64,000 nt of DNA from Naegleria gruberi (taxonomy: Eukaryota): assembly GCA_000004985.1 (NCBI GenBank), contig GG738869.1; one strand, given 5' to 3'. Below the pieces are notes generated by a model that worked only from the letters and a program-made list of their open reading frames with translations, was not told the DNA's origin and did no database searches. This document shows, piece after piece, positions 5,184 to 47,251 of this stretch (its first letter is position 1; each line of letters opens with the position of its first letter). Both the position numbers and the translations under genes were made by a program.

Positions 5184-6410
5184 CTAGTCCACTTCTGGTA
5201 CTTCCTCTTTTTCTTCTTGTTTCTGTGTGTCTGATTCAGTATCTTCATATTGCTCTTCGTTATTTTCATCCTTGTTGGTTTCTTCCTTTTTACTTTCTGG
5301 CGTTTCATGCTTACTGATTTGGATACCAGCCATAAGCTTACTAATATCACTCATCATAGGCATTTGCATAGCTGTTTGAGGTGGGATGTTCATTTGTGGT
5401 GGAGGTGTACCACTAGGTATCGTTGGTTGTCTGAACATTGCAAATGGATTTCCTTGCATTCCTTGTAAGAATGGTGAAGCAAATCTTCCAACTTCTCCCA
5501 TCATTCTATTCATCATTCTTTCTTCCCAATGTTTCATTCTTTCATCAACACATTCATTAATATAATTCTTCAAATCTTCCTTGGATTTAAATTCATTCAA
5601 GAGTATTGGATTTTCTGGAATATCGTTCAATGTTTCCATTTTAGGAGGTAAAGTTGGTTTAGGCATTTCTTGTTCAACCTTCCTCTCGGAAGCCACATTA
5701 TCAATGGTTTTTGTGATTGGCATTATTTGACCTACTATCATACTCATTTGCTTAGCTGTTGGATTATTCATTCCATTCATTAAATTCATTAACATTCTAG
5801 GATCGCTCATTAGTGCACTCATAGCTCCAGAAAATTGTTTCGATTCAGTTTCTCCTCCCATTGCTATCGACTGATTTTGATTCAATAATTTTTCTCCCCT
5901 TCTTTTACCATGAAAAATTATAGCAGAGACACAAATTTTTGTCTGTTTAGCAATTCTATCAGGATAATCCAATGATAAGAATTTCAAAGTAAAATTTGAA
6001 TGTCTCTGAATCTTCCTCTCACTCTGATTACTATCCAAACATACACAATTATACTGATAGGCATTATCCTCTCCAATCTTTTCAGTAAATCTACAAGTTT
6101 GTCCATATTCCTTTTCCTTAGAAGTATACAATTCCACAGTCCTAGCAGTACTAAAAATATCAATACTCGTCCATTCAATCATATAATCAAATTCTATCGT
6201 CAATTCAAAATACTTTTCATCATCAACTTTTTCAAAAACAACAAAGCCTCTCTTTTCTTGATTTTTTTCATAATCTTCAATATCATCGGTATGAATTAAT
6301 TTTCCAAATAATTCTGTAGGCTCGGAAGAAAATTGCCAATTTGCCTTCACATTCGGAAGAGAAGGAGGAGGGCAGACTAACGGTTCACCATCATTTGCAT
6401 TTTCTGTCAT
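5184..6410 (-). CDS. Hypothetical protein, Met/Gln/Pro-rich C-terminal half, acidic tail
   Basis: 408-aa ORF whose ATG is preceded by an A-run (aaaaaaaaATG on the minus strand). No family recognised by eye. Confidence 0.55.
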   Translation of the reverse strand: MTENANDGEPLVCPPPSLPNVKANWQFSSEPTELFGKLIHTDDIEDYEKNQEKRGFVVFEKVDDEKYFELTIEFDYMIEWTSIDIFSTARTVELYTSKEKEYGQTCRFTEKIGEDNAYQYNCVCLDSNQSERKIQRHSNFTLKFLSLDYPDRIAKQTKICVSAIIFHGKRRGEKLLNQNQSIAMGGETESKQFSGAMSALMSDPRMLMNLMNGMNNPTAKQMSMIVGQIMPITKTIDNVASERKVEQEMPKPTLPPKMETLNDIPENPILLNEFKSKEDLKNYINECVDERMKHWEERMMNRMMGEVGRFASPFLQGMQGNPFAMFRQPTIPSGTPPPQMNIPPQTAMQMPMMSDISKLMAGIQISKHETPESKKEETNKDENNEEQYEDTESDTQKQEEKEEVPEVD

Positions 6411-8478: not shown

Positions 8479-9072
8479 ATGTTCCTCTCTGATGATATTA
8501 TTATCAACATTTTTAAGCCACTCCTAGAATTCTGTCACTTTATTCAGCTCCGAGCTGTTAATTCTCATCTCTGTCGCTTAATTACCTCAAATTTAGAAGA
8601 AAATAATCAAATCATCAAGAAGGGAACACAACTGATCATTTTGAAAGGCAGTTTTAGAATTAGAGGTGATGTATTACTTCCCTTTACTGAAATTTTACGT
8701 AAACAGGAAATCAAATCTCAACACGTGATTGATGAATTCAACAGGAAGGATTATGGAAGATTATTTAAATTTTCTGATTTGGAATATGCTAGAACAAATA
8801 ATGCCTCTTTTAGAACTGAGTCTTTCCTACCACCAAACAATAGAAATTTAATTACTATCAAACATACTATCTCAGATCCTAATGATGATAGTGCTGTATG
8901 TTGTGCTAATTGTAAGATTGATTTGATTTTATCACCAACACAATCGAAAGCATGGAAAGAGGAAAATGGGTGTGTTGTTGGAATGGTTTCGAATGAATAT
9001 TTTGATTTGGTGTGGCATTATGATTTTCTTACTGGAATACGAGTTTATGTAAATATTTGTACAATCATGTAA
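8479..9072 (+). CDS. Hypothetical protein with F-box-like N-terminus
   Basis: 197-aa ORF with aaaaaaaATG context. The N-terminal LSDDIIINIFKPLLEF...LRAVNSHLCRLI resembles an F-box. Confidence 0.5.
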   Translation: MFLSDDIIINIFKPLLEFCHFIQLRAVNSHLCRLITSNLEENNQIIKKGTQLIILKGSFRIRGDVLLPFTEILRKQEIKSQHVIDEFNRKDYGRLFKFSDLEYARTNNASFRTESFLPPNNRNLITIKHTISDPNDDSAVCCANCKIDLILSPTQSKAWKEENGCVVGMVSNEYFDLVWHYDFLTGIRVYVNICTIM

Positions 9073-17004: not shown

Positions 17005-18012
17005 ATGGTGACTACCAATAACAACAAGGAAACATCGGTCGCTTCAACAGAGAAGAAGCCAGTTGCTGTGACTACCAACAAGATTAGACAAAAGTTAAAG
17101 CAAATGAACAAACAAACAAAATCAACGGTTACAAATAGTGATAGTACCAATTCTAAATTCCACAACAAACAAAGAACTTTGATTTTATCTTCACGAGGTA
17201 TTCATGCTAAACATAGACATTTATTGAAGGATCTTCGTACCTTGTTACCTCACACTAAAACCGAAAGTAAATTCTCTAAAGAAGGAATAGATGAAGGAGA
17301 TTTGGTTAAAAAACTTCACAGACTTCAAAAGATTGACCACATTGCTGCTGCTTTGAAATGTCCAAATATTTTGTACTTTGAAGTTGATAAGGAATCAGCA
17401 GATACAGAATTGTTTTTATGGATGTCAAAGACTTCAACTGGACCTTCTATGAGATTTAAAGTTGAAAATATCAGTACTATGAATGAATTGAATCTTATCG
17501 GAAATTGTTTGAAATATTCAAGACCATTATTACATTTCGACAAAACATTTGACAATATTGAAGGCGAAGATAAGCTTACTCATCTCCCATTGATTAAGGA
17601 ATTATTAACACAAACTTTCTCTACACCACTTAATCATCCAAAATCAAAACCATTCTTTGATCACATGTTTGCTTTCTATTATTTGGATGGAAGAGTTTGG
17701 TTCAGAAATTATCAAATTGTTACAAAACAATCAAGCCAAGGAGTTGCATTGACTGGTTCCCAAAAACATGAATATTCTCTTGTTGAAATTGGACCTAGAT
17801 TTGTTCTCAAGTTGACTAAGATTCTCAATGGTTCTTTCGATGGTAGAGTTATTTTCAATAGTGATTCACACTTTGTTTCAAAGGCTGAAGTTCAAAGATT
17901 GGAAAGCATTAAACTTGACCTCGACAAGCAAAAAAAGACTGAAAAACACAGAAAGTACTTAGAATTGAGAAAGCCAGCTGATGCTGATGAAGTGAGTTCT
18001 GTTTTCAATTAA
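17005..18012 (+). CDS. BRX1: Brix-domain ribosome biogenesis protein BRX1
   Basis: 335-aa ORF. RTLILSSRGIHAKHRHLLKDLRTLLPHTKTESKF, GPSMRFKVENISTMNELNLIGNCLKYSRPLLHFD and VWFRNYQI are Brix-domain (BRX1-type) signatures. Confidence 0.85.
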   Translation: MVTTNNNKETSVASTEKKPVAVTTNKIRQKLKQMNKQTKSTVTNSDSTNSKFHNKQRTLILSSRGIHAKHRHLLKDLRTLLPHTKTESKFSKEGIDEGDLVKKLHRLQKIDHIAAALKCPNILYFEVDKESADTELFLWMSKTSTGPSMRFKVENISTMNELNLIGNCLKYSRPLLHFDKTFDNIEGEDKLTHLPLIKELLTQTFSTPLNHPKSKPFFDHMFAFYYLDGRVWFRNYQIVTKQSSQGVALTGSQKHEYSLVEIGPRFVLKLTKILNGSFDGRVIFNSDSHFVSKAEVQRLESIKLDLDKQKKTEKHRKYLELRKPADADEVSSVFN

Positions 18013-18167: not shown

Positions 18168-18182
18168 TCACCGCGTTTCATT
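18168..18182. repeat. Left copy of an inverted 15-mer (TCACCGCGTTTCATT) with patchy extension to about 18212
   Basis: It is the exact reverse complement of 27780-27794. Further blocks match inward (TTGCTT, TTGTAAA). Confidence 0.5.
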
Positions 18183-18828
18183 TTGCTTTTTGTAATAAAA
18201 GTTGTAAAGTTATGACGTTGGATAGCTTTATAGAAAAAAATACCATCACCAACTGACAAACCAAAAATTATTACCTCCCAACAATAATTAGTAACATCAC
18301 ATCCTACCTCGTCTCTTAGGTTGAGTTCTTTTATAAGAAAGTTCTTTTCATGTAGAGGTGTTTTATAATTATTCCAAAATTGAAGTAATTGTTTTACTAC
18401 GAGGTAAACTCACAACAAATTCTCAAGGAGATGATGTTGTGTTTTGGGATGTAATGTTTCTTATTATGTCAGAAAACATCTAGTAAGGAATGATTTATTT
18501 AGAAGAAGAACAACAACAATATTTAGAAGATATAAAACCATCACTGTGGGCTGATGATTTTCAGCAATAATTTAGAGAGACCAAACAAAAAATGATTTAA
18601 TATTGCAACATACAAACACACCACTTCAGCACCAACAGCAAGTAATCGTCTATGGAAAACTTCATCAAAGAGGGTCTCCTTTTTTTCATCACTAAATTCT
18701 ATTGATGAAGCATCATGACTATATCCGAGGATTGTGAAACAACAACCAACAGCAGGCTTTTACGATGATTCCGCACATTTGAATGAAGTATTAGTTTAGA
18801 TCAACTGGTACTGAAAAGGAGAAAAAGT

Positions 18829-21170
18829 ATGCTGCTTGTTTGGCTCCTACCTCATCACTTGCTGTTGCTTTTTGTTATTTACTCCTGAATGCGTTGCTAT
18901 CTTATATATGATTGTGATGTGTTTAATTAATAAGTTGGAGTGGGAGCAGCAACAGGGTAATAAATGTAAGTACCTACGATTTATTTGAAATTTTACCTTA
19001 ATTCCATTTCATAATTGACACCATGGAACATTTAAGGTGAAATCTTCACCAAAATAATAATTTGAAATAGTCAGTTTTGGAAAATGATGTCAGAGAATTT
19101 GATATTTATGAGTGTAATCTTTTCACATTTCAATTTGGTTGGTGCTATACATTCCATCATCAAGACTTAAGGTCCTGCCATTAATTAGAAACTGTGATGC
19201 AAGAAATAGTAACTGTTGTTGATGGAACTGTTTTAGAAGATTTAGCAAGTATTAATGTTGTCTACACAACAGCAACTGTTGCCATCTAAATCCTTACAAC
19301 TCTGAAGGTGAATTCATTTTGAAATATGATCCTCCAAGGGAAACTATGTTCATTCTCACTGATTAAAAGCTGATTTTACCGTTTGATTTGAGTGTAGACA
19401 TTTACAATAGATGATTCTCTTACACATACAGAGGTGAAAGAGATGCACTGATGATGTTCTTTCAACTCTTCAGTTTTGACTCAAGTCAAATTGTCTATTC
19501 AGTGGAAGGTATGGATGAGTTATCTATATAGTAGACACTTATAACTTTAGAATTAGAAAGCTATCAATTACCAATAAGACTATCATATTTATTACTTATC
19601 GGTGGACAAGAAGAAGGAAAACTTTGGAAATGAATATTACTGATACTCTTGCTCAACCAACAGGACTTGCTTTTTTCAGAATTCTGAACATGCTTCAATT
19701 AACACCATTCCATATACATTGCCTACAAGTTTTACATCAAGATTGTCAATGATCTTACAATAATTGCAAGATCTAGTGCTCCACCAACTCCAGGTCTGAG
19801 TTAGCAGCTCCTGTTCCTACTCTCAATACAACTATTGCCCCAACAAGTATTGCAGTTGGTGAGGATGGAAAAGTAACACACCCTCAAAATGTTAACACCT
19901 GCTCCAACCTGAACAATTTTTGTCGTGGCTAATACTGGATAATATCGGTCCTATTGAGGATGATGGCTTGGCTATTAGTTCTTCATTTATTACTGTTTCC
20001 TCTGAGGAGATTATTCTTGCTGATTGTATGAACAATAGAATTAGAAAGATTTGTGGAGAGGGAGTCATTACTACCAGTGGCTAATGCCTATGACTAAGAG
20101 AGATGTTTGAAAGTAATTGACCTAACCTTTCATTTTGCGTATTGTATGGAATGAAATGTCTCTAGTCAAAGAAGTGTTTTTGAGAATTGTGAATAGTGCT
20201 TCAGTGATCGTTTGGGCTCTTGTTGATGGTAAGGAAATGAGTAGAGATATCAAAAAGATTGCATATGATTTTGCCTTCTTTACTATTGATGTTTCACAAG
20301 TTTGCCAAGGAATTGTAGTCATTCAAGTTATGTTAATATTCGTAAAAAAATTGAGAAAATGACTCTTTGCCACCTTGCTGATTTTCGAAGTGGTTTCTCA
20401 GCACCAAACTTTCACATCATCATCTAAACATCAATTTAGTAGTAATATAGTAATTTTTATTGGAGTATTTTCTTCATTATTTTGGAATTTATCTTCATGA
20501 TGAAAAATCACAAGTTGATGAATCATCAGAACATTATTGTTGTTTTCCATCAATATAATAATTTTATTTGTGGAAATTAATATATAGTAATGAAATTACA
20601 CTAAAATCTTCATCACCGTTGGATTTAATGGAAAAGTTGGAAAACTATTAATGTGGCATTGTTGGAAATGGACAATAGTATGATATAAAACTTTGTTTGA
20701 TCACTTTTCATCAAGTATTGATAGAGATAGGTACATGTGAATTTTGAAAACTAACATGAACATTACTCCATGTGTACTTCAACCAACTTGAATACAATCT
20801 TATAGAACTACTAGTACTATTTAAATCACGAATAAACACCATATTCATCATCAAATATTCGTCATCTTGTCGATTACGGAATTTCATTCCACCAGTGTTG
20901 ATTCGGGCCCAACAACAAAATATTAACAATAAAACAATTACCAATACTATTGTTTACATGTTTTATGTTAAATGATCGTAACGATCATCAAGATCATCCT
21001 GTTTTTATTGCATTTCTCATGATAATCAGAAATGTCACAGAGAGTGCCACATATCCATTCTACTCTCAATAAATAATAGTTCCTTTTTACACATGTGCAA
21101 CTTTGCTTATAAACATGATGAATTCATATATTAAAGACTCCAAAGGCTAGTATAATCCTCAATGTGATGT
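18829..21170 (+). pseudogene. 5' arm of a decayed NHL-repeat receptor paralogue (related to the intact gene at 30615..34371)
   Basis: A signal-peptide-like MLLVWLLPHHLLLLFVIY starts at 18829 behind an A-rich context. Stop- and frameshift-interrupted NHL blades follow. 19519-19566 reads VIYIVDTYNFRIRKLS (intact gene: NIYFIDYYNYRLRKLS). A frame-shifted VDKKKENFGNE matches intact GDGKNENNGDG. 19971-20081 reads ADCMNNRIRKICGEGVITTSG followed by TAA. 20772-20975 contains IFIIKYSSSCRLRNF. The 3' limit is approximate. Confidence 0.65.
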
Positions 21171-21329
21171 CTAATAATACCATTACAACTTAAAGATAAT
21201 TATCTTATAATTTCATTGAATATGAATTGAATTTGTAAATTGACATAAAACAGTGGTTTATTGTAATTTGGTTTAAAAATAGCTTTCTAAAGCACCTTGT
21301 TGTATCTTGTTGTGACATTTACTAAAAAA

Positions 21330-22385
21330 ATGGCAAAAGCACCAGCACAAATTGTTATGGAGAACAAATTGCGGAAATCATTAACATTAAAACAATTCAT
21401 AGAATTATCCAAGTCTACAAGAAAAAGGAGATTAGATAATCTTCGTAAGAAATTCTTTAATTCAAATTTATTTAAATATTCTTGGAGTAAATGGCGAGAT
21501 GCTATTATCGGAACAAACAATTCAATCCAATATTTATTAAAACAAAGAAAAAACATAAAAAATAATTTATCAACATCTACAATTGATACAATAATTCAAC
21601 AATTAAAAGAGGAAAGGAACAAATCTACAAAAAAAGAATCCAAAAAAGATTTTGAAAAAAAAATTAATAATTTATTACAATCTAAAAATTTATTCAAAAT
21701 CAATGTTAATTTGATATTATGTAGTAATTTGGCTAATACTATTCAACTAATGTTTTTAAGAAATATACTTCCCGAAAATACCACTACTGAGGTAACCAAT
21801 ATATTGGATAAAATTAACCAAAGAAGATCAAAGGAAAATTATTATATAGGAAGTTGGGGAAAGAGTTCTTCTTTTCTATTTAAAACTAATGACACTATTT
21901 TTAATGAATTATCTTCTCAATTTATTAAAATTATTAATTTATTAAAAAATTATGTTTTGGAAATATTGAAATTTGGAAATAACAAGATGAGGAAATTCTT
22001 AGAAAAATACAATAGTAGTGATTTTTTATCAATTTATCCGACAGTGTGTTTTAATTTTTTGGATAAATCTGTAGATGAAAATAGAATTCTACATATTCAT
22101 CCGGATAAGGAAGACACTGGAACTAGTCTAATTTTTTACTTTGGAAAGTTTAAAGGTGGAGCAATCTCATTTCCTGAATTAAATTTTAAGCTTATGGTTC
22201 AATCAGCAGATGTTTTATTGTTTGATGGTAAGAATAATTTACATGCTGTTGAATCACTTCATGGTAAAGATGATGTTAGATATTCCGTTGTATTCTTTGC
22301 TCATAAAGCAGACTTGGGTAAAACTAGTTATCCCATGAATAGAGGAGAAGTTATGAAAGGTATTAAGAATAAAATCAATAATTAA
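21330..22385 (+). CDS. TET/JBP-family Fe(II)/2-oxoglutarate dioxygenase (NgTet-like 5-methylcytosine oxidase candidate), 351 aa
   Basis: The track start at 21297 is TTG; the true ATG is at 21330 (aaaaaaATG). The C-terminal core reads HIHPDKEDTGTSLIFYFGKFKGGAISFPELNFKLMVQSADVLLFDGKNNLHAVESLHGKDDVRYSVVFFAHK. It carries the HxD ... H ... R pattern of the double-stranded beta-helix. It parallels my recollection of Naegleria Tet1 (HKD...LFYFGNF...GDVLFF.G...H...R...VYFAHK). The N-terminal half is Lys/Asn-rich. Confidence 0.8.
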   Translation: MAKAPAQIVMENKLRKSLTLKQFIELSKSTRKRRLDNLRKKFFNSNLFKYSWSKWRDAIIGTNNSIQYLLKQRKNIKNNLSTSTIDTIIQQLKEERNKSTKKESKKDFEKKINNLLQSKNLFKINVNLILCSNLANTIQLMFLRNILPENTTTEVTNILDKINQRRSKENYYIGSWGKSSSFLFKTNDTIFNELSSQFIKIINLLKNYVLEILKFGNNKMRKFLEKYNSSDFLSIYPTVCFNFLDKSVDENRILHIHPDKEDTGTSLIFYFGKFKGGAISFPELNFKLMVQSADVLLFDGKNNLHAVESLHGKDDVRYSVVFFAHKADLGKTSYPMNRGEVMKGIKNKINN

Positions 22386-22439
22386 ATTTTAAATAATTAT
22401 TTAAATAATTTTTATAAATAATTTAATTGTATTAAAAAA

Positions 22440-23760
22440 ATGTCTCCACACTTTAACCTCGAATTTTATTCGAGAAGCACAACAGTAATAGATGAAAGCA
22501 CTCTCGGTGGGCTTGATTTGATAATAACACACTTATACATCCTCTTGTAGGAGTATAATTAGTGTTGTTGTTGTGAGTTGAGGACGTTATTTTAATTCCT
22601 TTTCCCTTCTTCCAAAGTTTCCTGTTCAAACTTTGTTGCTTCCGTAAATCATATTATCAACAGGAAAGATCATTTAACTGCGAGCATCGTTGTTGGATAC
22701 AAACTATGCATTGACAATTCTTTTAATTATCTTGAATGTTTGGTAATTGATGGCAATGTTCATATAATCAACTCTCACCAAAGAAGAATTCTAAAATATA
22801 TCTAATGATCAGGCTGTTGATTTTCAACAACATACAGGTATTCGGAGCTATTGTAAAATAATTGTTTTACTTTGATGATTCAAATGGTTTTCAACAACTA
22901 ACATAATTCTTATCCATCTTGCAAAAAAAGAGGATACCATGACAGCAATCAACTTATATCAATATTGAAAAATCATTAGGAAATTATTCAGAAGTAGCAT
23001 GCATTGTAATTGTTGCGTTCAAAACATTTCTCAACATTAAATTCTTTCTCCACAATCAAACCCTGCTCAGCAACAATCAGAAGAGGAGCCATCTTTTAAT
23101 CTAACTTGCCATCTATGTTGAAGGAATGTACATTTAGAAATCAGTGATGTTCACCCTGAATGTGATGGATCTTTTTCTGGCTACTTGTATTGGTTGCTCC
23201 AGTAATTGCACATATGGAGGCTCTTTTAATGTTTCCAATAACCAAACTATGCTGGTGATTCCACTCCCAACCAAAACCCTATCAAAAAGAATTCTTCTAT
23301 ACAACTAGTATGAGTCATAGAGCTGTTGTCTTTCGTCCACTTTTAATAATAATATATGGTATGCTTTTGTTCAGGCTGTAATGTTTCGAGTGCAATTCAA
23401 CACCAGTGTTTTCATTCCAACCATGATTGGATCATATCTCCAAAGAGGACACTGGGTATTATTACTATTTAAAGTTGGCTACTAATAGTGAAATCTACTT
23501 GTTCGATCCAATGTTGGATGCCAAGTTCACTAGTGCTGAGCTGGCTATTGATATTTCAGATATCCTTTTTGTTTGTTGTCACTACCACCCTATTATTCAA
23601 CTTCTAGGTTTACGTTTCAAGAATCATGGGTTTATTTGGTTTAAGATGTTATGTTTCAGTATTCACGTAAATATGATGCAAGGAGGACACTTATTGCTGC
23701 TGTGGTGGTAATAGTAGCATTACCTTAGGTGTTGTAGTGTATACTACTTCATCATCTATT
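22440..23760 (+). pseudogene. 3' arm of the same decayed NHL/EGF receptor paralogue
   Basis: 22506-22547 reads GGLDLIITHLYILL followed by TAG (intact gene: NLALIDHNLYILCD). 22740-22802 reads LVIDGNVHIINSHQRRILKYI followed by TAA (intact: GDFLITETNSHLVRRVSKG). 23158-23184 reads ECDGSFSGY, an EGF-like Cys repeat remnant. About 23690-23750 encodes a hydrophobic IAAVVVIVALPLGVVV-like transmembrane remnant. There are many in-frame stops. The order of remnants matches the intact gene. Confidence 0.6.
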
Positions 23761-24134
23761 AATACTTATTCTCCAATTACTCAAACAAAGACAATTTCAA
23801 TCAACATTCACTATGTCAGTGCTTAATTATTCCAAGTTGTACTAAAACAACATCACTAACAAGGTGCTAAACAACTATGCTTTCCATTTCAACGCAGAGG
23901 CATATGTCTTGCGTTTGGGGCAGAGATTTAGTGCTTGAATAGTGGTTAAACAACAATGGATGGGCATTTTGGCAACTGGTTTTCAGTAGCTTCACATTCA
24001 TGTTGTTTGACTTAACAAACACTTTGGCTGCAATCTATTCACTCTTTATCCATCATTTATTCATCATTTACACCAATACTGTATTGTTTACATTTTGTAT
24101 GCTAGCTGGTTATTATTATTAATCATTAAAAAAA

Positions 24135-26864
24135 ATGGGAGTAGCGACACTTTTTACCAAAGCTGACGTTTTAAATTCCCACAACATCAAAAAGCAAAAA
24201 GAAACCAAACGTCCTGCCTTTGAAGGTGATAATGATAGATCGATTGTGGCGGCAATTAAAAAAACAAAACAACAAGCATCCAACGACTTTGAGTATTACA
24301 AGACATACAAAGAAACAGATTTCACTAATGAACAGAATTTTAGTTCAATAATTTATCAGATAATGCTAGTTCTATTGCCCTATTTTGTTTTTAAAATAAC
24401 CTCAGGATTATTAGATTTTGAATCAATATTATTATACTTTCTAGTCTCCACAAAAAAAGGCAAAGATTTATTAGCACAAGCCAATCTATATAGTACTGAG
24501 GGTGTTTCTTGGTGTGAAGCAATAGTATTTAAAGCAATTTGTAATGCAGATATAAGTATAGGGAGTTATGGTAGATTTATTGGTTGTTTAGAAGAATCTA
24601 GTAAATCAGACACATCCAGAAATAAGAAAAAGGCAAGACATTTTTTACCATCACTCTCTACAATAACAAAATATTCAAGTAGTTTACATCAAGTATTAGA
24701 TATCAATCATGCTGCAGATAGCGAAGGACTTTATTGGAGAATATTTTGTTCATCCATAGAACTTAATGACAGGACATTCAGATATGCAACGCTTCAAAAT
24801 GCAGAATTGTTTTTATTCTCATTTATTCGCTACCATGAAATGATCATAGGAGAATATATCTTCTTTGTAAAGATAAGATGTACTGTTGATGGTTCACCTT
24901 TAGAGGGAGCCTGTACTGCGTATGATATTGTATTAATTCATCCCAAGATAGATCCATTTTGTGCTCGTAATTATATTTCTGTTATTATTGCCGAGCCTAA
25001 AGAGGAAATAGCGTTCAAATTAAACATCTGGGATTTCTCTCGCCAGTTAATGCGTATCACACAGTTGAAATACTCTGTACCTAATGAAGAAACAAGAATT
25101 ATTCCTGTAAAATTTATTACCAACCCTGATAAGGGCGCCTTTAACAAAATTATAGATGTGGAAAAGGTAACGCCAATTTGTGATCCTATTTTTAATTTGG
25201 TAAATCTTTATTGCCTATTATCAATGATTTTCAATACAGATAATTCCTTAATACTACCTCTAATTCCAACAATAAGAGGAGATTGTAATAATGATAGCAA
25301 CAAAGCAAAAGGACAAGCAAATCTAGCAAAGGTTATGGAAATTAAAAAGATTATGCCTGAAACGTTACCTTATTACCACAACATTCCAACAAAATCCCAA
25401 ATATTTACTGATTTTCAATTAGATGAAGATTCTATTTTTTTAATTGAAAAATTTATCATTAAGAAACCTCAAACAGATTATTTATGTTGTATGTTTTGTT
25501 ATTTAACTAAACAAACAAAAAGAATAGCATTGAAGTATCCTGATTTGTGTACATGGAAATGGTACAGATCAAACGAAAGCTCAAGTAATGCTTTAGGCTG
25601 GCCTTTTAAAAGTTTTTCATGGTGTCTTTCGCATGATATAAGAGCCTGTGGTCAGAATCTTATTGAAGAAGAGGTGGGACAAATTGAAGAAGATAGACAA
25701 TATTTTGCCAAATTATTCAGTTCTGAATCTCCAATTGCCTCTTTGAAATGTGGTTCTAAAAAGCTAATTAATGAACAACTAGATGCCAACCTTGTTTCTG
25801 AATTTGAGTTTTGTCAATGGAGTGTATTTGAATTAAAGGTGAAAGAAGAAAAAAAGAAAAACAAAACAGGAACAGAGCTACGAACTAGTTCAGTTAAACT
25901 AATCTATGATCAGATTTTGTTTAAACAAATAGACAAAATTATAATGACAATAGATGTTTGGTATCCTCATTGGCTCACATATCGAGAAAACAAACAATTA
26001 CAGGTTTGTCAATCCCTTAACAATAATCAATCATTTGAAGATTGTACAAATGAAGAACACTCCAAGCGAGGAACATACAAACCAAAAAACTATGAACATA
26101 TATGGAAAGCTCTTCAAAAAACATACATTACTCTTCGCCAACCAAAATCTAAATGGTTAGAATGGAAGAAAACTGGATATCAAGAGCCATTGCTAATATT
26201 TAAGAATTTAAATAAGGTTTGGATAAAAGATATTTTAGGAAGAATATCAGAATATTTACACATTCATCAACATGCAGATATTGTGTTCGATGAAGTAGAA
26301 GAATCATTCGTAACAACATCAAACATTGGATCTGAATCTAAAAATTCTTTAAGAAGGAAGCGTCATGTTTCATTTGGAGTTAATGGTGGTTTAAGACATC
26401 CTTGTGATGATTCTTTATATTATGACAGCAAAAGAATTCTTAATGAATTGAAGATCCTTGCTGAGACTCCTAATATTATTGCAAGACAAGATGAGATCAA
26501 AAGAAAACAAGTTTCCGAAAAAGAAAAACTCACACAACCAAAAAAGAAAAGAAAATCTGAAACTACTACACAACCCAATCCAATAAGCTCAACCAATTCC
26601 TCAATTAATTATATCAATCCTTCCCTATTACAACCTCTACTTCCAGATAATTTTAATTCAATTACATTACACAATCAACACTCCTTCTCACCTCCTATAT
26701 ATATTCATCCTCTTCAACTCCAACCTCCACTAACTAACAATTTAACATTTTCTCAATTCAATCCTTCTCAAAATTCCAATAACCAACCAACATCTCCTTA
26801 CCAACCATCATCTCCATTTTCATTCTTTTCATCCTCCAATCCATCACCAAACTCCTTTTTATAA
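24135..26864 (+). CDS. 909-aa protein with DDE-transposase-like motifs and a Cys cluster (candidate CACTA/Plavaka/KDZ-like transposase or domesticated derivative)
   Basis: Intact ORF with aaaaaaaATG context. IRCTVDGSPLEG (D252, nt 24888-24890) is followed by a hydrophobic strand and ..IIAEPKEE... This parallels the DG(F/V)xPF ... WPV ... IPGPK block of EnSpm/CACTA-type transposases as I recall it. Second acidic candidate: FITNPDKGAF (D332). Cys/His cluster: CCMFC...C...C..H....C at aa 451-505, followed by SHDIRACGQNLIEEE. The tail is low-complexity and Pro/Ser/Asn-rich. The family assignment is tentative. Confidence 0.4.
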   Translation: MGVATLFTKADVLNSHNIKKQKETKRPAFEGDNDRSIVAAIKKTKQQASNDFEYYKTYKETDFTNEQNFSSIIYQIMLVLLPYFVFKITSGLLDFESILLYFLVSTKKGKDLLAQANLYSTEGVSWCEAIVFKAICNADISIGSYGRFIGCLEESSKSDTSRNKKKARHFLPSLSTITKYSSSLHQVLDINHAADSEGLYWRIFCSSIELNDRTFRYATLQNAELFLFSFIRYHEMIIGEYIFFVKIRCTVDGSPLEGACTAYDIVLIHPKIDPFCARNYISVIIAEPKEEIAFKLNIWDFSRQLMRITQLKYSVPNEETRIIPVKFITNPDKGAFNKIIDVEKVTPICDPIFNLVNLYCLLSMIFNTDNSLILPLIPTIRGDCNNDSNKAKGQANLAKVMEIKKIMPETLPYYHNIPTKSQIFTDFQLDEDSIFLIEKFIIKKPQTDYLCCMFCYLTKQTKRIALKYPDLCTWKWYRSNESSSNALGWPFKSFSWCLSHDIRACGQNLIEEEVGQIEEDRQYFAKLFSSESPIASLKCGSKKLINEQLDANLVSEFEFCQWSVFELKVKEEKKKNKTGTELRTSSVKLIYDQILFKQIDKIIMTIDVWYPHWLTYRENKQLQVCQSLNNNQSFEDCTNEEHSKRGTYKPKNYEHIWKALQKTYITLRQPKSKWLEWKKTGYQEPLLIFKNLNKVWIKDILGRISEYLHIHQHADIVFDEVEESFVTTSNIGSESKNSLRRKRHVSFGVNGGLRHPCDDSLYYDSKRILNELKILAETPNIIARQDEIKRKQVSEKEKLTQPKKKRKSETTTQPNPISSTNSSINYINPSLLQPLLPDNFNSITLHNQHSFSPPIYIHPLQLQPPLTNNLTFSQFNPSQNSNNQPTSPYQPSSPFSFFSSSNPSPNSFL

Positions 26865-26897
26865 AATAAAAGGAATAATTTAAATTATAATAATTGT

Positions 26898-27659
26898 TTA
26901 ATATTTATTCCATTTAACAGATTCATCAAGCATAGAGCAGAAATAATCAAATTCAATTCTAATCATCTTCTCTTCAGGTTTGTAAATTAATTTAAATTGA
27001 TTAATTCCAAATTTCCATAAAATACCATCATGCTCCCATTTAAATGCATACCACTTATCACTAAACAAAGGAGGAAGGCTATAATTTCCAGCAAACAACC
27101 AATGATATGTTATCTTTGGAACTATTCTTCCTTCCCTTGCAATGCCACCCTCAATCAACATCTCTTCTTTTAAAATGCTATATGGTTTTGCCTTTTGTAT
27201 TTGATAATCAAAGAATAGCTTTGCTTCGTGATCATCTGTTACAGAAACATAATGTTGATGATGCCACTTGACATTATGGGTTGTATCTGGCTGAGCATTT
27301 CTAATAACTACCTCCTCAATAGTTCTCGGAAGTACCTTTAGGTATCTTGTTGCATAATATTCATCAGAATATTTTTCATCCATTATCTCACGCAGTGTTA
27401 TTGTTGGTAGGGAAGTATCAAAAAAGTATTCAAGTTGTTGTCTTTTCTCTAATGGTATGTTCACTTTCTTACTCTCTTCACTGCCTTCAAGAATGTTTGT
27501 TACTTGGCGTTTAGCTGTTTTCAAATCATCAACCTTCTCTACAACAAAACGTATTTTGTTTGTATTGTTATTCTTCTCCAACGATTTATTCATAGCTACC
27601 CTCTTACTTTTGCTCAACCTGTATACTTCAAACGTTACTTCTGTTTTGTTGGTGACCAT
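26898..27659 (-). CDS. Hypothetical protein (orphan), 253 aa
   Basis: Uninterrupted ORF with an ATG start; no recognisable motif. The Trp/aromatic-rich C-terminal half (WYAFKWEHDGILWKFGINQF) suggests a folded domain. Confidence 0.45.
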   Translation of the reverse strand: MVTNKTEVTFEVYRLSKSKRVAMNKSLEKNNNTNKIRFVVEKVDDLKTAKRQVTNILEGSEESKKVNIPLEKRQQLEYFFDTSLPTITLREIMDEKYSDEYYATRYLKVLPRTIEEVVIRNAQPDTTHNVKWHHQHYVSVTDDHEAKLFFDYQIQKAKPYSILKEEMLIEGGIAREGRIVPKITYHWLFAGNYSLPPLFSDKWYAFKWEHDGILWKFGINQFKLIYKPEEKMIRIEFDYFCSMLDESVKWNKY

Positions 27660-27779
27660 AGAAAATACTTGTTTGTTTTGTTTTGATTTTGTTGTTGCTC
27701 ATGTTGTTGTTGATATGTGGTGTTGTTGATGTTATTGTATTTTTTTTTACGTGAGTTTACAAATTGAAAAACAAGCAAG

Positions 27780-27794
27780 AATGAAACGCGGTGA
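27780..27794. repeat. Right copy of the inverted 15-mer (AATGAAACGCGGTGA) with patchy extension from about 27748
   Basis: It is the exact reverse complement of 18168-18182. It lies about 120-135 nt upstream of the minus-strand gene starting at 27659. Confidence 0.5.
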
Positions 27795-28045: not shown

Positions 28046-30412
28046 ATGGGAGGAGAAACTGAACCATCTAACGAAGCTCTAATATCACCAATTACACCTT
28101 TTTCAACCATTATTCCAAATACCTATTCTCAACAACAAGCTAATTTTGATTCAAGTACAATATCCGAAGAGAGGAATGATGGTGATAGTATCAATAGAGT
28201 TACCTCTCTTCCACCATTACCATCATTAGACTCTCCCAAGAAAAAACCTCTTCCATCCATTAACACTCTTTCTCCACCAAGAAAGACTTCAAAACCACTC
28301 CCACCAAGACCAACACAAACCTCTACGGAAATTAATAATTTAGTATTTTCTCATCCCTCTGCTATGAATACAACTTATTCTTCCGATAATTTTACCACCA
28401 ACAATCCATCCTATCCATCCACACCTCCAAAAGTTTTGTTCCGAGATTATACTGAGAATAATTTAGAGCCAGCTTCCAGTATTAATACATATAATTACGA
28501 GTTTGCAAATATAAACCCTGAACCAATATCACATATATTTACAAATGTAGATGGTAGTATGCACCGTAGTTCCTCCTTTGCGGGTACTTTGGTCAACAGA
28601 CGTTCAATTCCTTCGAATGTTGGTTTAAACTCTATACAGGAGGAAGCTATGATTCGTACTCAAAGTTATGACAAATTTAAATTGGACGAATTAAAGAAAC
28701 AAGGATCGACTGCTGCTGGCAATAATAACGGAAATAATAATAATAAGAGACATAAGAAAATATTTTATAATACTGAATTTTTGGAGAAATGCGGATTTAG
28801 TAATAATTCTATTGAACAGCAACAAATCAAACAACTGAAACAGGATGAACTTCAAGAGGAACAGATTCGTAGAATGCATTCTGAACAAGAACAAAAAATG
28901 AAGCAAATGGAATTAGAAGAGTTGGCTCTCGTCAACCGAACTTTACAACAAGAGTTCAGTTTTTCAGAATTTTTAACTTCTCAACCAAAATACTCATGGA
29001 GTGACTTTTTTGCCCATAACAAGAATGCATTTAGTTTAATCAGAGCTATGGCATCTCAATGGTCATGGGGAGAAATGACCTTGGGACTCGAATATTTTGC
29101 AAGAAGTAAGGGCAAGATGAAACGTGATTTTACTCAATTCAAATTAGAGTCAGATTTAGAGAGACTGCCAGCTTCAAACGTTGAGGTTTGGAGACATTAT
29201 GCACGTTTAACCTATCAAGTTTTTAGAGACTCGATAGAGGACATACCAAGGAACACCCGTTTGGAACTTCACAAAATTATTGCCTACGATAGAACTCAAC
29301 AAGCCATGAGACCTGGATATTTTCTGTGTGTGGACGACTATACAAAATCGGTTCTGGTTATTTTTAGAGGAACAAAATCATTTAGTGATATTCTGACTGA
29401 TTTGCACTGCTCCTCTATTCGTTACAAACATGGATATTGTCACAAAGGAATTTTGACAGCTGCTCAATATTTTGATTCGAACAAATTCATCAAGGAAGTG
29501 GTTAAAAGAACTCTTGAGCATCATCCAGGATACAAATTAAGGTTGCTGGGTCATAGCTTGGGTGGTGGTACTGCAGCTATATTGTCCACTATGTGGAAGA
29601 AAGACTTTCCTGATATTCACTGTTATGCATTTGCATGTCCACCAGTTTTATCACAAATTTTAGCTGACGAATGTGCTGACTATGTTACAAGTTTTGTAAA
29701 TGGTGATGATTTTGTAACAAGATTATCAATGACAGCTGTTCACGAATTGAGAAAGGAAGTACAGAACTATCCTTGGAAGGAGGAAATGATGAAAGATATT
29801 CAAAACTCAACACTTGGAAAGTTTGCAGCTGGAGTTAAAAATTATGCATCTGGTTTATTTAGTGGATTATTTGGAGGTAGTAAGAAGGCAGATGTAGTAG
29901 AGCCAATCATAGAAGTTAAAAAGGATGTAATCAAGACAGAACCTATCACCACAAACATTACAACAATAAGTACAGGAGAAGATGCCAAAAGAATTGAGTA
30001 CGATCAATCTAATTCATCGATGGAGGATCAAGATATTTCCAGTTCAAGTAATGCTGATGATGTGCAGAGTACAGATGAGCCTCTTTCCTCAATCTCACAA
30101 AGCACTAATGATGATGTTTTCCCTTCTTCAGGCTCAACTGTTAAAAGAAAAGTTTCCAAAAAACCAAAGAGGAACCCAGATTCTCCACTGATTATTAATG
30201 ATTATGAAAATCTTGTTGTGACTCTCTTCCCAGCTGGTTGTGTCTATCAAATTAGAAATATTGATGACACTGTGTACATAAAAAAGGCCAATAAGGAAGA
30301 CATTACTTCCATAATTTTGAGTGACAGCTACAAGGAAGATCACAGAATGATCAACTATTTATGTAATCTTGATGCTTACAATCCAATAACAACCGAGAGT
30401 AGTGTAATATAA
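28046..30412 (+). CDS. Class 3 (fungal-type / DAG-lipase-like) lipase with a long disordered N-terminus
   Basis: 788-aa ORF. FRGTKSFSDILTDL ... LLGHSLGGGTAAIL (GxSxG nucleophile elbow) ... FVNGDDFVTRLS are lipase_3 signatures. Confidence 0.8.
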   Translation: MGGETEPSNEALISPITPFSTIIPNTYSQQQANFDSSTISEERNDGDSINRVTSLPPLPSLDSPKKKPLPSINTLSPPRKTSKPLPPRPTQTSTEINNLVFSHPSAMNTTYSSDNFTTNNPSYPSTPPKVLFRDYTENNLEPASSINTYNYEFANINPEPISHIFTNVDGSMHRSSSFAGTLVNRRSIPSNVGLNSIQEEAMIRTQSYDKFKLDELKKQGSTAAGNNNGNNNNKRHKKIFYNTEFLEKCGFSNNSIEQQQIKQLKQDELQEEQIRRMHSEQEQKMKQMELEELALVNRTLQQEFSFSEFLTSQPKYSWSDFFAHNKNAFSLIRAMASQWSWGEMTLGLEYFARSKGKMKRDFTQFKLESDLERLPASNVEVWRHYARLTYQVFRDSIEDIPRNTRLELHKIIAYDRTQQAMRPGYFLCVDDYTKSVLVIFRGTKSFSDILTDLHCSSIRYKHGYCHKGILTAAQYFDSNKFIKEVVKRTLEHHPGYKLRLLGHSLGGGTAAILSTMWKKDFPDIHCYAFACPPVLSQILADECADYVTSFVNGDDFVTRLSMTAVHELRKEVQNYPWKEEMMKDIQNSTLGKFAAGVKNYASGLFSGLFGGSKKADVVEPIIEVKKDVIKTEPITTNITTISTGEDAKRIEYDQSNSSMEDQDISSSSNADDVQSTDEPLSSISQSTNDDVFPSSGSTVKRKVSKKPKRNPDSPLIINDYENLVVTLFPAGCVYQIRNIDDTVYIKKANKEDITSIILSDSYKEDHRMINYLCNLDAYNPITTESSVI

Positions 30413-30614: not shown

Positions 30615-33600
30615 ATGTCACAACATCAAACAACACTACAACTACTCATTTCCCTGTTTTTATTTTTGATTGTTGTTCAATGCACAGCATCAACAATGGA
30701 ATACAATACTAGTCTATCATTTGGTATTGATACACTGGTTGGCTATGATCCGAATAATGGAAATAATCTTCCTTCAATATATGCCAATTTGAATCCCAAT
30801 AATTTGACATTTGGCACGAATACAAAGATAATGTTCATGTATGATGGTGTTAGGAATGCCATCATGAAACTTGATCTGAAAACAAATCTGATTTCGAAAT
30901 TAATTGATTTAGAATATAGAGCGCTCTCAATATTAGAAACTAGAAATGGAATTTTATTTACAGATGCTCAAGGAAGGAATATTAAAATGTTGGCCAATGA
31001 TTCAATTTCTATTGTGGCAGGAACATTAACAACAGGATATTCAGGTTTGTTGATCTTGGGATGATTTTATTTTAAACTAATATTTGATATTAAAAGGGGA
31101 TGGAATTGCAAACGAAACGAAACTAAACTCTCCAAAGGGATTAATTGAGGATGGTAATGGAAATATTTATTTCATCGATTACTATAATTATAGATTGAGG
31201 AAATTATCAGGTAATATGATTTCAACAATAGCTGGTGATGGAAAGAATGAAAATAATGGAGATGGAGGATCAGCTCTAAAGGCCAACTTGAAAAATCCTT
31301 CCAATCTGGCACTAATTGACCACAACTTATACATTTTATGTGATACAGCAATAAGGAGAATTGATTTAATCACAAGTAAGATTTACAGTTTCTCAGTTGA
31401 AAGTCCATTCAAATTTACTGGAATTTTCCAAGCCAATGGAACAATTTTTGTTCACTCTGCTACTGCAATTGGTAAAATTCAATCCAATCAGAAGATTTCT
31501 ATCATTTCCGGATCAGCATCTGTATCGGGTCCTTCTGTAAATAATATTCCAGCAATTGATGCCTTATTCAAACAAATAAGTTCAATTGGGGTACTTTCGT
31601 CTGAGTTAGGGGATGTTATTTATGTTTATGATTCTTCAAATAATGATATTAGGGTTATTAATGAGACTCGTTTTATTAATCTGTTGGCTGGTGTTAAATC
31701 TTTGAAAGCAAATGTGGATTTATCGGCTCCTTATTTTATTTCTAATGATCCAATTGGACTTGCTGAGCTGATTAATGGTGATTTAGCCTTTTCGCATTCA
31801 GGTGGAATTGCCAAATATTCCAATGGATTGATAACAAACATAGTCGAATCTTCTAGCCCAATATTAGGAATTGCTTTCTATGAGAAAGAGGATGAGCTCT
31901 ATTATGTGGATTCGAACTCAAAAATTAAAAAGCTCAAAGATGGAGAAACGATACACGTAGCAGGAGCATCGAATGGACAAAATGCAGACAACATTCCAGC
32001 ATCAAAAGCATTACTTTCCTCTCCGTATGGAATTTCAATAGATCAAAGCAATGGAGACATTTATTTCACTGAACAATCAGGAAATAGAATACGAAAGATT
32101 TCTCAAGGAATTTTAACAACAGTTTGTGGAAATGGTCAAGCAGGAGATTCTGGAGATAAAGGGGAGTCCATTAAGGCACTAGTGAATAATCCAAGTGGAA
32201 TTCAGTTTACACAAAATGGAGAGATTTATTTCGCTGATTCAGGTAATAATCGTATTCGAAAGATTGTGAACGGTACCATTAACACAGTTGCTGGGGCAAA
32301 TGTTTGTAATGCTAAGGAAGGATCAAAAATGGCCACTGAAACGGTGTTGAGAAATCCAACTTTCGTTTATGTCTATCCGAATGGTGATTTTCTCATAACA
32401 GAAACAAACTCTCATTTGGTGAGAAGAGTTTCAAAAGGATTTATTTACACTATTGCAGGTACTGGACTATCTGGAGAGGGACCTGATTCAGTTCTGGCTC
32501 TTCAATCAGCTTTAACAAGTCCCAAGTCAATCATTCATTCATTTTCAATGAAACGAGTTGTACTAGTTGATAAGACCAATAGAGTGAGAATCTTAACTCC
32601 TTATTGTGAAGAGGGATATGTATTAGATGTTTATGGAGCATTCTGCATTCCTTTCTGTTTTGGAATTCTTGCAAATGATACAAATACTTGCTCTGGAAAG
32701 GGAGAATGTTCTTCATTCAACAGATGTAATTGTGCAGCATCCTATGGAGGAGAACAGTGTAATATTTCTAAATGTTTTGGAGTATTGGCAACTGACTCAA
32801 AGACATGCAGTGGAAGAGGAAAATGTTTGGATGGAATTTGTGATTGTGGAGGTAAATTCATTGGAACTAATTGTGAAATTCCCATTTGCTATGGAAAAGC
32901 TTCAAACGAGAGTGAAGTTTGTGGCGCTCATGGAAAATGTTCTAATTGGAATACGTGCGAATGTTTGGATAAGTATTCAGGCAGTTCGTGTCAATATCCT
33001 ATTTGTTTCGGCATTGCTTCAACCAGCCCTACTGTTTGCAGTGGAAGAGGAGTATGTACAGGACCAGATTCTTGTAATTGTCAATCTGGATCTTCTGGTA
33101 CTATTTGTGAAGTATCGAGAGAAGAAATTGACAAACAGAATCGAGAGAGAATAATCATAATAATTAGCTCAGTTTCAGGCTCCTTATTCTTATTATTCTG
33201 CTGTATTATTTGGACAATATCGGTATTCATATTCACCAATAGAAAGCTCAACCAACGACACAATGCAGAGCTAGATATGGAAAAGAAACTTCTTGAATTT
33301 GAGTTCAATGATTCACAATCTTCAGTCAGGGAATCAGTCTACCTCTTTTCACAACACCAGAAACCATACTTGATACCAATAGAAGATATTACATTTGTTA
33401 AAAAGATTGGAATTGGAGGATTTTCAAATGTTTATTTGGGAAAGTGGAACCAGTCGTTTGTGGCTGTCAAATCTGTTGAAAATCAAGACGATAGAGCTGA
33501 TGATGTATTTGAAAAAGAAGCACAAACTTTGTGTGCCCTCAAACATCCAAATATTATCACTTTTTATGGAATTTCATTTTCAGAGAGCAGAAAATTGCTG

Positions 33601-34371
33601 ATTGTGGAATATTTTGAAAAGGGAAGTTTAGATAAGTACATTGAAGCACTCACTACAAGGAAGATTAATTGCTCTCTAGAGAAAAAGATCAATTACTTGT
33701 TGCATATTGCTAATGGAATGGCCTATCTTCACTCGTACAAACCTAATCCTATTGTTCACAGAGATTTGAAACCAGCCAATGTTTTAATGTCAGAGAATGG
33801 AATTCTCAAGATATGTGATTTTGGATTGAGTAGAAGTTTGAATTACGAAACCAAGTCAGCCATGACATCCAATATTGGAAGTTTCTATTATTTGTCTCCA
33901 GGTAAGTTGTTTTTGGGTAGTTTATAATAATTTGATCTAAATCTGAAAGAAATGTTAAATGGAAGCAATCAAAAGAAATATGCAACTGCTTTGGATGTGT
34001 TCAGTTTTTCAATCATTGCTTGGGAATTACTTTTTGAAGAGGGAAATCCATACGATTATTCCAACAGAACAAAAGTATTTTATACAATGAATGAGGAAAA
34101 ACAGCTTCGATATGAAAAACTCAGTCCATTTAATGTTCCAACTCTTGTTTCTCAAGGCCTGAGACCACCAATTCCATTCGATTCGTCCGAAAGTTGTAAA
34201 GATTGGTGTAGCTTATTCGCAACCTCTGAAAAAGAACATTATCTCATTATTTTACAATTAACTGATTTGATTAAGCGTTGTTGGGATGAAAGACCCGAAC
34301 AGAGACCTTCATTTATAGAGATTGTGAACATATTATCTCAATTCGAAACTTATTTCTCACATGATTTGTAA
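30615..34371 (+). CDS. Receptor-type protein kinase, 3 exons, 1218 aa: signal peptide, NHL repeats, four tandem EGF-like Cys repeats, TM helix, TKL-like kinase domain
   Basis: Exons 30615..31044, 31097..33901 and 33950..34371. Introns 31045..31096 (GTTTGT..AAAG) and 33902..33949 (GTAAGT..GAAAG). The junctions restore TTGYSG|DGIANETKLNSPKG and YYLSP|EMLNG. NHL blades read NxIRKI...G.I.T.AG. Transmembrane helix IIIIISSVSGSLFLLFCCIIWTISVFIF. Kinase motifs GIGGFSNVY, VAVKSV, HRDLKPANVL and DFGLS. Confidence 0.85.
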
Positions 34372-39468: not shown

Positions 39469-39542
39469 TACAGCGAGCGGGGCTTGAACCCGCGACCTTA
39501 AGCGTGTTAGGCTTACGATCTAACCAACTGATCTATCGCTGC
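39469..39542 (-). tRNA. tRNA-Val (anticodon AAC)
   Basis: The reverse complement reads GCAGCGA TA GATC AGTTGGTTA GATC G TAAGC CTAACAC GCTTA AGGTC GCGGG TTCAAGC CCCGC TCGCTGT A. This folds as a full cloverleaf with the GTTCAAGC T-loop and anticodon loop CT-AAC-AC. A TTTT run lies shortly downstream on the minus strand. Confidence 0.9.
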
Positions 39543-39712
39543 TTACATTCATTATGAAATGTTTCTTAATATCGATTTACTAAAATACTCAACAGGTCTA
39601 TGGAGGTGCTTTATTTCTAAATTGAAATTTAGTTGCTCAAACGCTGAACCTAAACTAAATGGTTGTTTGATTTTTGTAAGAGACATTAATATTGATATTG
39701 AAACTCTAAAAA

Positions 39713-47170: not shown

Positions 47171-47251
47171 GCAGGGGTTCCCGAGTGGTCAAAGGGGGTA
47201 GACTCAAGTTCTACTGCGCAAGCTTCGTGGGTTCAAATCCCACCTTCTGCA
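47171..47251 (+). tRNA. tRNA-Leu (anticodon CAA), class II with long variable arm, no intron
   Basis: Acceptor stem GCAGGGG pairs with CTTCTGC (two G-U pairs). Anticodon stem-loop GTAGA CTCAAGT TCTAC. T arm GTGGG TTCAAAT CCCAC. Discriminator A. Followed by a T6 run. Confidence 0.9.

Follow-up and report, generated by a model that had tools for sequence, protein, structure and literature searches.

Does a pair of short inverted words lying 9.6 kb apart mark the two ends of a mobile element? The question is raised by a stretch of 64,000 nucleotides of Naegleria gruberi DNA (contig GG738869.1 of assembly GCA_000004985.1), hereafter the window, in which the 15-mer TCACCGCGTTTCATT lies on the plus strand at 18168-18182 and its exact reverse complement at 27780-27794. 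A preliminary description of the locus had noticed this pair and a patchy likeness extending inward from it, and had proposed as its origin either the eroded termini of a large element or a CGCG-box-like promoter motif. Inspection of the sequence and a search for further copies bore out the pair, and we conclude that 18168-27794 is probably one copy of a class II, cut-and-paste DNA transposon of N. gruberi, with the two 15-mers as its terminal inverted repeats (TIRs). This conclusion is carried by the termini themselves, by a junction at the right end, by copies with different flanks, by a deletion derivative and by the same architecture around the same three genes in Willaertia magna.

The inverted 15-mers and the right-end junction

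By itself, the bare inverted pair does not exceed chance, since order-2 Markov simulations produced a mean of 9.9 inverted exact pairs of at least 15 nt and the window has 9 distinct ones. The word itself, in contrast, is compositionally rare, with two CpGs in a window whose observed/expected CpG ratio is 0.45 and whose 64 kb contain no more than five CGCG sites; about 1e-5 exact copies are expected per strand per 64 kb. The earlier remark that a single 15-mer pair is hardly beyond chance thus holds for a bare pair but not for this CpG-rich word. No third copy was found in the 64-kb window with up to two mismatches allowed, and a scan of JGI metagenomes for CACCGCGTTTCATT[N]TTGCTT returned only three unrelated chance matches (36 to 50% GC) in sequences otherwise unlike the window. 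The likeness inward of the 15-mers, said to reach about 40 nt on each side, proved to be real, since the two ends give a gapped alignment of about 42 nt (TCACCGCGTTTCATT[C]TTGCTT..TTGTAAA) whose extension beyond the 15-mer is seldom matched by random sequence (55 of 4000 pairs, p ~0.014).

The right end was located independently by means of two metagenome contigs, L001 and L002, from run ERR1078381, which also yielded a third contig, L011 (k127_390420). L001 matches window positions 27793-25074 at 99.3% identity and L002 matches 27796-26809 at 99.2%, and the tip of the right 15-mer is precisely where both depart from the window and from one another. With a slash at the tip, the junction reads ...CGTAATT/TCACCGCG in the window, ...GGTATTTTTT/TCACCGCG in L002 and ...TTAGAGGAA/CACCGCG in L001. 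The flank beyond the tip extends for 622 nt in L002, where it carries an unrelated DUF2505-like gene, and for only 20 nt in L001, these metagenome contigs being short. Three different flanks thus place the end at 27793/27794, and an end that abuts three different sequences is characteristic of a unit that is repeated and mobile. Since the right end is thereby fixed as a breakpoint without reference to the left one, its inverted partner at 18168 can be treated as specifically predicted, with about 1e-5 such matches expected, and not as a pair picked post hoc.

These data bear on the alternative that the 15-mers paired by chance and that the contig breakpoints reflect either faulty assembly or the margin of a segmental duplication. 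The unremarkable frequency of inverted pairs of at least 15 nt would allow it, as would the short contigs and the 20-nt flank of L001, but we hold it to be highly improbable in view of the composition-specific expectation, of the long, coherent and unrelated coding flank of L002 and of two findings described below, namely, an independent, analogous TIR with the same cargo in Willaertia and a second sequence block common to four ends.

The third contig, L011, joins window positions 23862-24030 to 25942-26924 at 85 to 96% identity; its first 182 nt match the window at 87%, after which it jumps to 25942. As it is without most of the 909-amino-acid (909-aa) open reading frame (ORF) of the window, L011 is a copy, older and internally deleted, such as DNA transposon families leave behind, and its retention of 23862-24030 indicates that this stretch belongs to the repeated unit. 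The presence of L011 beside copies of 99% identity in one metagenome points to older and younger family members in one N. gruberi-like population.

We also weighed the possibility that the 15-mer is a cis-regulatory, CGCG-box-like promoter element shared by two genes and lying upstream of both in the same orientation. The right copy is indeed close upstream of the 253-aa gene, as had been described (121 nt from its ATG); the terminal regions probably contain promoters, and a separate 24-nt motif precedes both the TET gene and the 253-aa gene. A common promoter motif should recur, however, and neither the 15-mer nor its heptamer class occurs anywhere else in 64 kb with about 30 genes; both copies of the 15-mer stand at the tips of the element. 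The left copy, moreover, faces about 3 kb without an intact ORF, and identity with the other copies ends exactly at the outer edge of the motif. A promoter origin of the 15-mer is therefore most unlikely, and that part of the preliminary description has to be given up. The 24-nt motif is another matter. Its pattern, TT[G/C]AATTTGTAAA..[G/C]AC[A/G]TAAAA, was defined post hoc, and a related pattern gave 4 matches versus 0.93 expected, a weak indication that it may be a promoter element shared by the transposon genes.

A related element in Willaertia magna and the bipartite ends

A comparable unit was found in Willaertia magna, where positions 9004-14248 of contig L004 and 7789-13190 of contig L005 are 98.5 to 99% identical and lie between unrelated flanks. 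This two-copy unit starts CACGGGGTGGT (the start of the sequence shared by L004 and L005 being given as CACGGGGTGGTCTTCGC) about 160 nt upstream of a 253-like gene, and L004 has an exact inverted 11-mer at 17027-17037. An exact 11-bp TIR is thus present at a left boundary that had been mapped independently. The 8,034 bp bounded by these TIRs in L004 hold 253-like, 909-like and TET/JBP genes (tblastn E values of 9e-15, 6e-21 and 9e-18, respectively); the TET gene, whose match to Pfam Tet_JBP (8e-5) is below the cut-off, lies 80 nt inside the right TIR. Beyond these three genes, the elements of the two genera show no conservation. L004 is therefore another locus at which a pair of inverted termini surrounds related cargo, a recurrence for which the preliminary description had proposed to search, and a TET/JBP gene is found inside a TIR-bounded unit both there and in the window, where its catalytic residues are intact. 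Directly outside the Willaertia right end, at L004 18543-21763 on the minus strand, lie two neighboring genes with SprT-like protease domains, one of which also has chromo and HMG-box domains.

The ends of the two elements share a bipartite layout. The heptamer CAC[CG]G[CG]G is confined to the two tips both in the 64-kb window (CACCGCG..CGCGGTG) and in the 22 kb of L004 (CACGGGG..CCCCGTG). Within 80 nt of the tip, all four termini carry an inward-facing AAAAAAATA, a 9-mer found only six times on both strands of the 64-kb window; when quadruples of 80-nt segments were drawn at random from both sequences, none of 40,000 shared any 9-mer. The distance from the end of this block to the tip is 56 and 74 nt in Naegleria and 61 and 43 nt in Willaertia, so that the arms from the tip to the A7TA block differ by exactly 18 nt in both species (18168-18242 versus 27738-27794 in the window; 9004-9064 versus 16995-17037 in L004). 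The longer arm lies on opposite sides relative to the 253-like gene in the two genera. Subterminal repeat arrays of the En/Spm TnpA-site type were not found.

Taken together, these data retain one half of the earlier proposal of eroded termini. That the 15-mers are termini is supported by the junction with three flanks, by the Willaertia analogue and by the second conserved block at both ends, but erosion need not be invoked, as a short perfect TIR followed by patchy subterminal likeness is normal for such elements.

Gene content and the candidate transposase

The window is intron-poor, with about 33% GC, and the element lies between a Brix-domain gene that ends at 18012 and a class-3 lipase gene that starts at 28046; without the element, the intergenic gap would measure 408 nt. 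The CpG values of the element and its flanks (0.38 and 0.46) are inside the spread of other 9.6-kb windows. The gene content had been described correctly, the 15-mers enclosing a degenerate region, a TET ORF, the 909-aa ORF and the 253-aa ORF (Table 1).

Table 1. Coordinates of the features of the element in the window
Feature	Position	Strand	Remarks
Left TIR	18168-18182	+	Exact 15-mer TCACCGCGTTTCATT; heptamer CACCGCG at 18169-18175; imperfect likeness to right end up to ~18209
Inner A-rich block, left end	18234-18242	+	AAAAAAATA; ends 74 nt from tip
Degenerate, stop-riddled interior	18243-21226		No long ORF; faint NHL-repeat-like fragments at ~19520-20080 (+)
24-nt promoter-like motif	21227-21250	+	TTGAATTTGTAAATTGACATAAAA; 80-103 nt upstream of TET ATG; 83% identical to 27745-27768
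TET/JBP 2-oxoglutarate-Fe(II) dioxygenase gene	21330-22385	+	351 aa; cargo; HxD (H257, D259), distal H and R all intact
Stretch upstream of 909-aa gene	23862-24030	+	Kept in deleted copy L011
909-aa ORF, putative transposase	24135-26864	+	D252, D332, C452-x2-C455, C497-x2-H500, H709/H713, E734
253-aa ORF, putative accessory protein	26898-27659	-	Convergent with 909-aa ORF; in all cases adjacent to or fused with 909-like protein
Inner A-rich block, right end	27738-27748	-	AAAAAAAAATA; ends 56 nt from tip
Partner 24-nt promoter-like motif	27745-27768	-	86-109 nt upstream of 253-aa ATG
Right TIR	27780-27794	-	Exact 15-mer; heptamer at 27787-27793; outer edge is the junction common to three different flanks

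The TET ORF matches the NgTet1 structures 4LT5/5CG8 with an E value of 3e-21 and Pfam Tet_JBP with an E value of 3e-5, the latter below the Pfam cut-off. It corresponds to N. gruberi NAEGRDRAFT_79850, to which it is 100% identical over the annotated 211 aa; the gene model has 211 aa and the frame that is open from the ATG has 351. The published annotation of the locus with the 909-aa, 253-aa and TET genes looks incomplete, and no N. gruberi protein in the databases searched corresponded to the 909-aa or the 253-aa ORF. The single identical database match of the 253-aa protein came from the metagenome run that yielded the three contigs.

Neither the 909-aa nor the 253-aa ORF gave a match in Pfam and PDB searches, and a word-indexed homology search with the 909-aa ORF found nothing; its relatives, seven in number, were retrieved only by exhaustive HMMER search and came from Naegleria fowleri, Naegleria lovaniensis, W. 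magna and metagenomes. The sequences recovered thus suggest a family confined to Heterolobosea. In the family alignment, D252 (VDGSP), D332 (NPDKG), C452-x2-C455, C497-x2-H500, H709-x3-H713 and E734 (GSESK) are conserved in this order. The resulting pattern, D, D, C(2)C, C(2)H, H(3-4)H, E, has the same order as in the CMCT group (Kojima 2025, PMC12730594) and in transposases of the CACTA/Transib type, the CMC/CMCT group being taken here as EnSpm/CACTA, Mirage, Chapaev, Transib, Plavaka and ESTA. The presence of C(2)C and H(3)H between D332 and E734 in five to six family members is a pattern match by inspection rather than a statistical result, with an atypical C(2)C spacing. In two AlphaFold2 models of low confidence, DSSP assigned a beta-beta-beta-alpha-beta succession around D252 and D332, each of which follows strands. 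From the order of conserved residues and these models, we consider it fairly probable that the 909-aa protein is a DDE transposase; that it is CMCT-like is possible, but the more doubtful of the two propositions.

The 253-like and 909-like genes are neighbors in four loci, and in N. lovaniensis they are fused. There, protein P0005 (1159 aa; L003 10001-13765, PYSW02000061.1) consists of a 253-like N-terminal part (E value of 5e-11 to the 253-aa protein), two Zn2Cys6 clusters and a 909-like C-terminal part. Neither TIRs nor a TET gene was found near P0005, possibly a transposase that was domesticated and now serves as a DNA-binding factor. In a comparison of the window with L001, the 253-aa gene shows no non-synonymous and two synonymous differences.

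Several results weigh against the transposon reading or against individual parts of it. With regard to the putative transposase, C(2)C lies about 120 residues after the second D, versus about 20 in RAG1 and ESTA. No Pfam model, including Transposase_21/24, KDZ and CxC, matched the 909 family at an E value of 1 or less, and a PDB profile search with the family returned no transposase and neither RAG1 nor Transib. The hhalign comparison with the mouse RAG1 core (RAG1 sequence 100% identical to PDB 4WWX) scored 19.1, a value equalled by 21 of 150 shuffles (P ~0.14 to 0.2) and thus not significant; the same alignment pairs H709/H713 and E734 with RAG1 H937/H942 and the catalytic E962, the H-to-E spacing being 21 versus 20 in RAG1. 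The core of the fungal ESTA-10_MLP transposase, rebuilt from Data S1 of PMC12730594, gave no match by hhalign. The two AlphaFold2 models (full protein and core, from alignments of 8 to 9 sequences) reached a pLDDT (predicted local distance difference test) of only 42 to 46, and a Foldseek search with them against the PDB returned noise only. Finally, the 909-aa genes of the window and L001 differ by six non-synonymous and four synonymous changes, a dN/dS of only ~0.5 that is based on 10 differences.

With regard to the element as a whole, the left end is without an independent breakpoint, all junction data coming from the right end. An empty site was not recovered by exact-protein look-ups of the flanking Brix gene and internal ORFs; the look-ups of the 909-aa ORF, the Brix gene, the TET ORF, N. 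gruberi P0002 and an internal 66-aa ORF all remained without a match. The copies with different flanks are the window copy, metagenome contigs and Willaertia loci. Gene order and orientation are unlike between the Naegleria and Willaertia elements, and Willaertia L005 has neither the right end nor the half that carries TET; among the copies covered, one per species contains TET, as the metagenome contigs and L005 either do not reach the TET part or are without it. Convincing TIRs were not found near the N. fowleri, N. lovaniensis and Willaertia L010 homologues, nor was a TET gene; these homologues may be decayed or domesticated copies. The target-site duplications (TSDs) for which the preliminary description had advised looking outside both 15-mers are not in evidence either, the window flanks showing no clean one. 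With CAC tips the flanks read AAT/AAA, and a 2-bp AA/AA results only if the T is counted inside the element. The flanks in Willaertia L004 are TT/TT, and 2-bp matches in AT-rich DNA could be due to chance.

Part of this evidence would also suit a composite, in which the right 15-mer ends a smaller unit with the 253-aa and 909-aa genes and perhaps TET, the left 15-mer is solo or foreign, and the 9.6 kb are not one element. Consistent with a composite, the independent breakpoint exists at the right end only, the unit shown by L011 reaches left only to 23862, the left 3 kb are non-coding and without a Willaertia counterpart, Willaertia L005 stops 2.8 kb before the TET gene, and no clean TSD is seen. 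In Willaertia L004, however, an inverted terminus lies beyond TET, which is thus inside the TIRs there, and the left end in the window has the heptamer, the 15-mer and the inward AAAAAAATA, as expected of a functional partner end. We judge a composite to be unlikely; even so, it would leave the 15-mer as a transposon terminus.

A further explanation dispenses with mobility and regards the 253-like, 909-like and TET genes as a conserved host cluster, duplicated now and then, that is involved in DNA modification, the 909-aa protein being a zinc-binding chromatin or DNA-binding factor. The 909 family has no significant similarity to transposases, the N. lovaniensis fusion combines it with domains of the Zn2Cys6 transcription factor type in the absence of TIRs, and N. 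fowleri has a lone copy, all of which would be in line with a host function. We nevertheless regard this explanation as very unlikely, since exact short inverted termini with unrelated flanks occur in two genera, a deletion derivative is known, the annotated gene set does not include the element and domesticated relatives elsewhere fit a transposon origin.

The degenerate left 3 kb gave no match in a Pfam search. The NHL-like fragments there are frameshifted over several frames (for example, ILADCMNNRIRKI and VIYIVDTYNFRIRKL), and a comparison of the region with an NHL-EGF-kinase gene at 31084-33927 gave a weak match only (tblastn E value of 0.02). The region may be a decayed or captured fragment of a host gene, or old element sequence.

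Three observations concern other parts of the window. The beginning of the lipase ORF at 28046-28063 (ATGGGAGGAGAAACTGAA, encoding MGGETE) forms, together with 5844-5861, the longest exact inverted repeat (18 nt); this may be an N-terminal coding motif, of the myristoylation type (MGG...), shared with a gene on the opposite strand. At 39710-43016 on the plus strand, adjacent ORFs have common, internally repeated protein segments (tblastn E values down to 1e-9), which suggests a tandem-repeat protein or a gene pair. A tRNA-Val gene at 39469-39542 adjoins these ORFs, and a tRNA-Leu(CAA) gene is located at 47171-47251.

Proposed mechanism and comparison with known systems

In the mechanism that we propose for the transposon, the 909-aa protein, possibly with the 253-aa protein as a partner, would recognize the heptamer/15-mer and the A-rich block at both ends; cleavage would occur at the CAC tips and would be followed by reinsertion into AT-rich intergenic DNA. 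The known insertion sites lie 125 to 250 nt from neighboring genes. The 253-aa protein would be an accessory partner of the transposase, and the terminal 120 to 160 nt beside the 253-like gene would have to double as the promoter of that gene. By analogy with fungal TET+ transposons (PMC12730594), the TET cargo would probably oxidize 5-methylcytosine on or around the element and so counter methylation-based silencing. More speculatively, TET might act on the transposase binding sites, because the tips contain CpGs in a CpG-poor genome.

TET/JBP genes on DNA transposons are documented only in fungi (PMC12730594 and earlier work cited there). In the literature covered, with Repbase and some key papers outside its scope, TET-carrying DNA transposons were likewise described only for fungi, and none for Naegleria. 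If our reading of the locus is correct, enzymes that oxidize 5-methylcytosine were captured by transposons independently in a very distant eukaryotic lineage, or the association is an ancient one. At least some Naegleria Tet paralogues would then be transposon cargo and not host epigenetic regulators, which would change how they are interpreted. The Naegleria Tet family provided the first TET-DNA crystal structure. The analysis also defines a Pfam-less, lineage-restricted family of candidate transposases with a partner protein, as well as ends with a bipartite layout resembling heptamer and nonamer that is directly testable, and it flags two intact ORFs, of 909 and 253 aa, that were not found among N. 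gruberi database proteins.

Plant En/Spm (CACTA) elements have 13-bp TIRs that start with CAC and produce their two proteins, TnpA and TnpD, by alternative splicing. The Naegleria element resembles them in its short TIRs with a CAC start (15 bp), in its large size and in encoding a second protein besides the putative transposase. It differs in having neither subterminal repeat arrays nor a match to Pfam Transposase_21/24, in encoding the two proteins by separate genes and in that no 3-bp TSD is seen. Elements of the KDZ (Kyakuja-Dileera-Zisupton) group, the classic case of an association with TET/JBP, likewise combine a transposase gene with such a gene, and Kyakuja has CA..TG termini. However, no member of the 909 family matches a KDZ or CxC model of Pfam, the TSDs of KDZ elements measure 7 to 8 bp, and Kyakuja is without TIRs.

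The design of the ends recalls that of Transib, whose consensus is CACAATG-23-AAAAAAATC (Kapitonov and Jurka 2005, PMC1131882), and of the recombination signal sequences (RSSs). In each case, a CAC heptamer is followed by a spacer and an A-rich nonamer (here CACSGSG ... AAAAAAATA), with unequal spacers at the two ends, and in the only hhalign alignment with RAG1 the H/H/E residues are paired, although not significantly. In contrast to the 12/23 arrangement, the spacers in Naegleria and Willaertia range from 27 to 58 nt, with a difference of 18 nt between the ends. A TSD of 5 bp is not apparent, the target sites are AT-rich rather than GC-rich, there is no RAG2-like gene, and the element comprises 8 to 10 kb with cargo. 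A bolder version of the mechanism would make the element a previously unrecognized, heterolobosean-specific superfamily deeply related to Transib/RAG1, with RSS-like ends (18-nt spacer difference and A7TA nonamer), a RAG1-type zinc site and catalytic E, and a TET enzyme that keeps the CACCGCG heptamers free of 5-methylcytosine, so that transposition would be licensed epigenetically by the element itself; we think this rather unlikely.

The closest parallel in operation is offered by the fungal TET+ DNA transposons, above all EnSpm, ESTA and Plavaka of the CMCT group (Kojima 2025, PMC12730594). Like them, the Naegleria element is a TIR-bounded DNA transposon with an intact TET/JBP gene beside a transposase gene, here a putative one. 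Both the Naegleria and the Willaertia ends agree with the 5'-CA(C)..(G)TG-3' termini by which CMCT elements are recognized (PMC12730594), and fungal ESTA and EnSpm share the 5'-CAC..GTG-3' form, ESTA-10_PCor beginning with CACCGCGG. The host, on the other hand, is a heterolobosean amoeba (Discoba) and not a fungus, and the TET protein is of the Naegleria NgTet type. Comparisons of the 909 family with ESTA, RAG1 and Pfam models detected no match, and the C(2)C of the 909-aa protein is displaced from the second D, as described above (~120 and not ~20 residues). The conserved 253-aa partner gene is an addition, as is the A-rich inner block that makes the ends bipartite. A TSD of 2 to 5 bp would be expected, and the Naegleria element has at most a possible one of 2 bp, indistinguishable from chance. 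Because the defining test, detectable transposase homology, fails, we have not filed the element under CMCT. By analogy, then, the Naegleria element would work like the fungal TET+ CMCT transposons, with ends whose design resembles, as a resemblance only, that of Transib.

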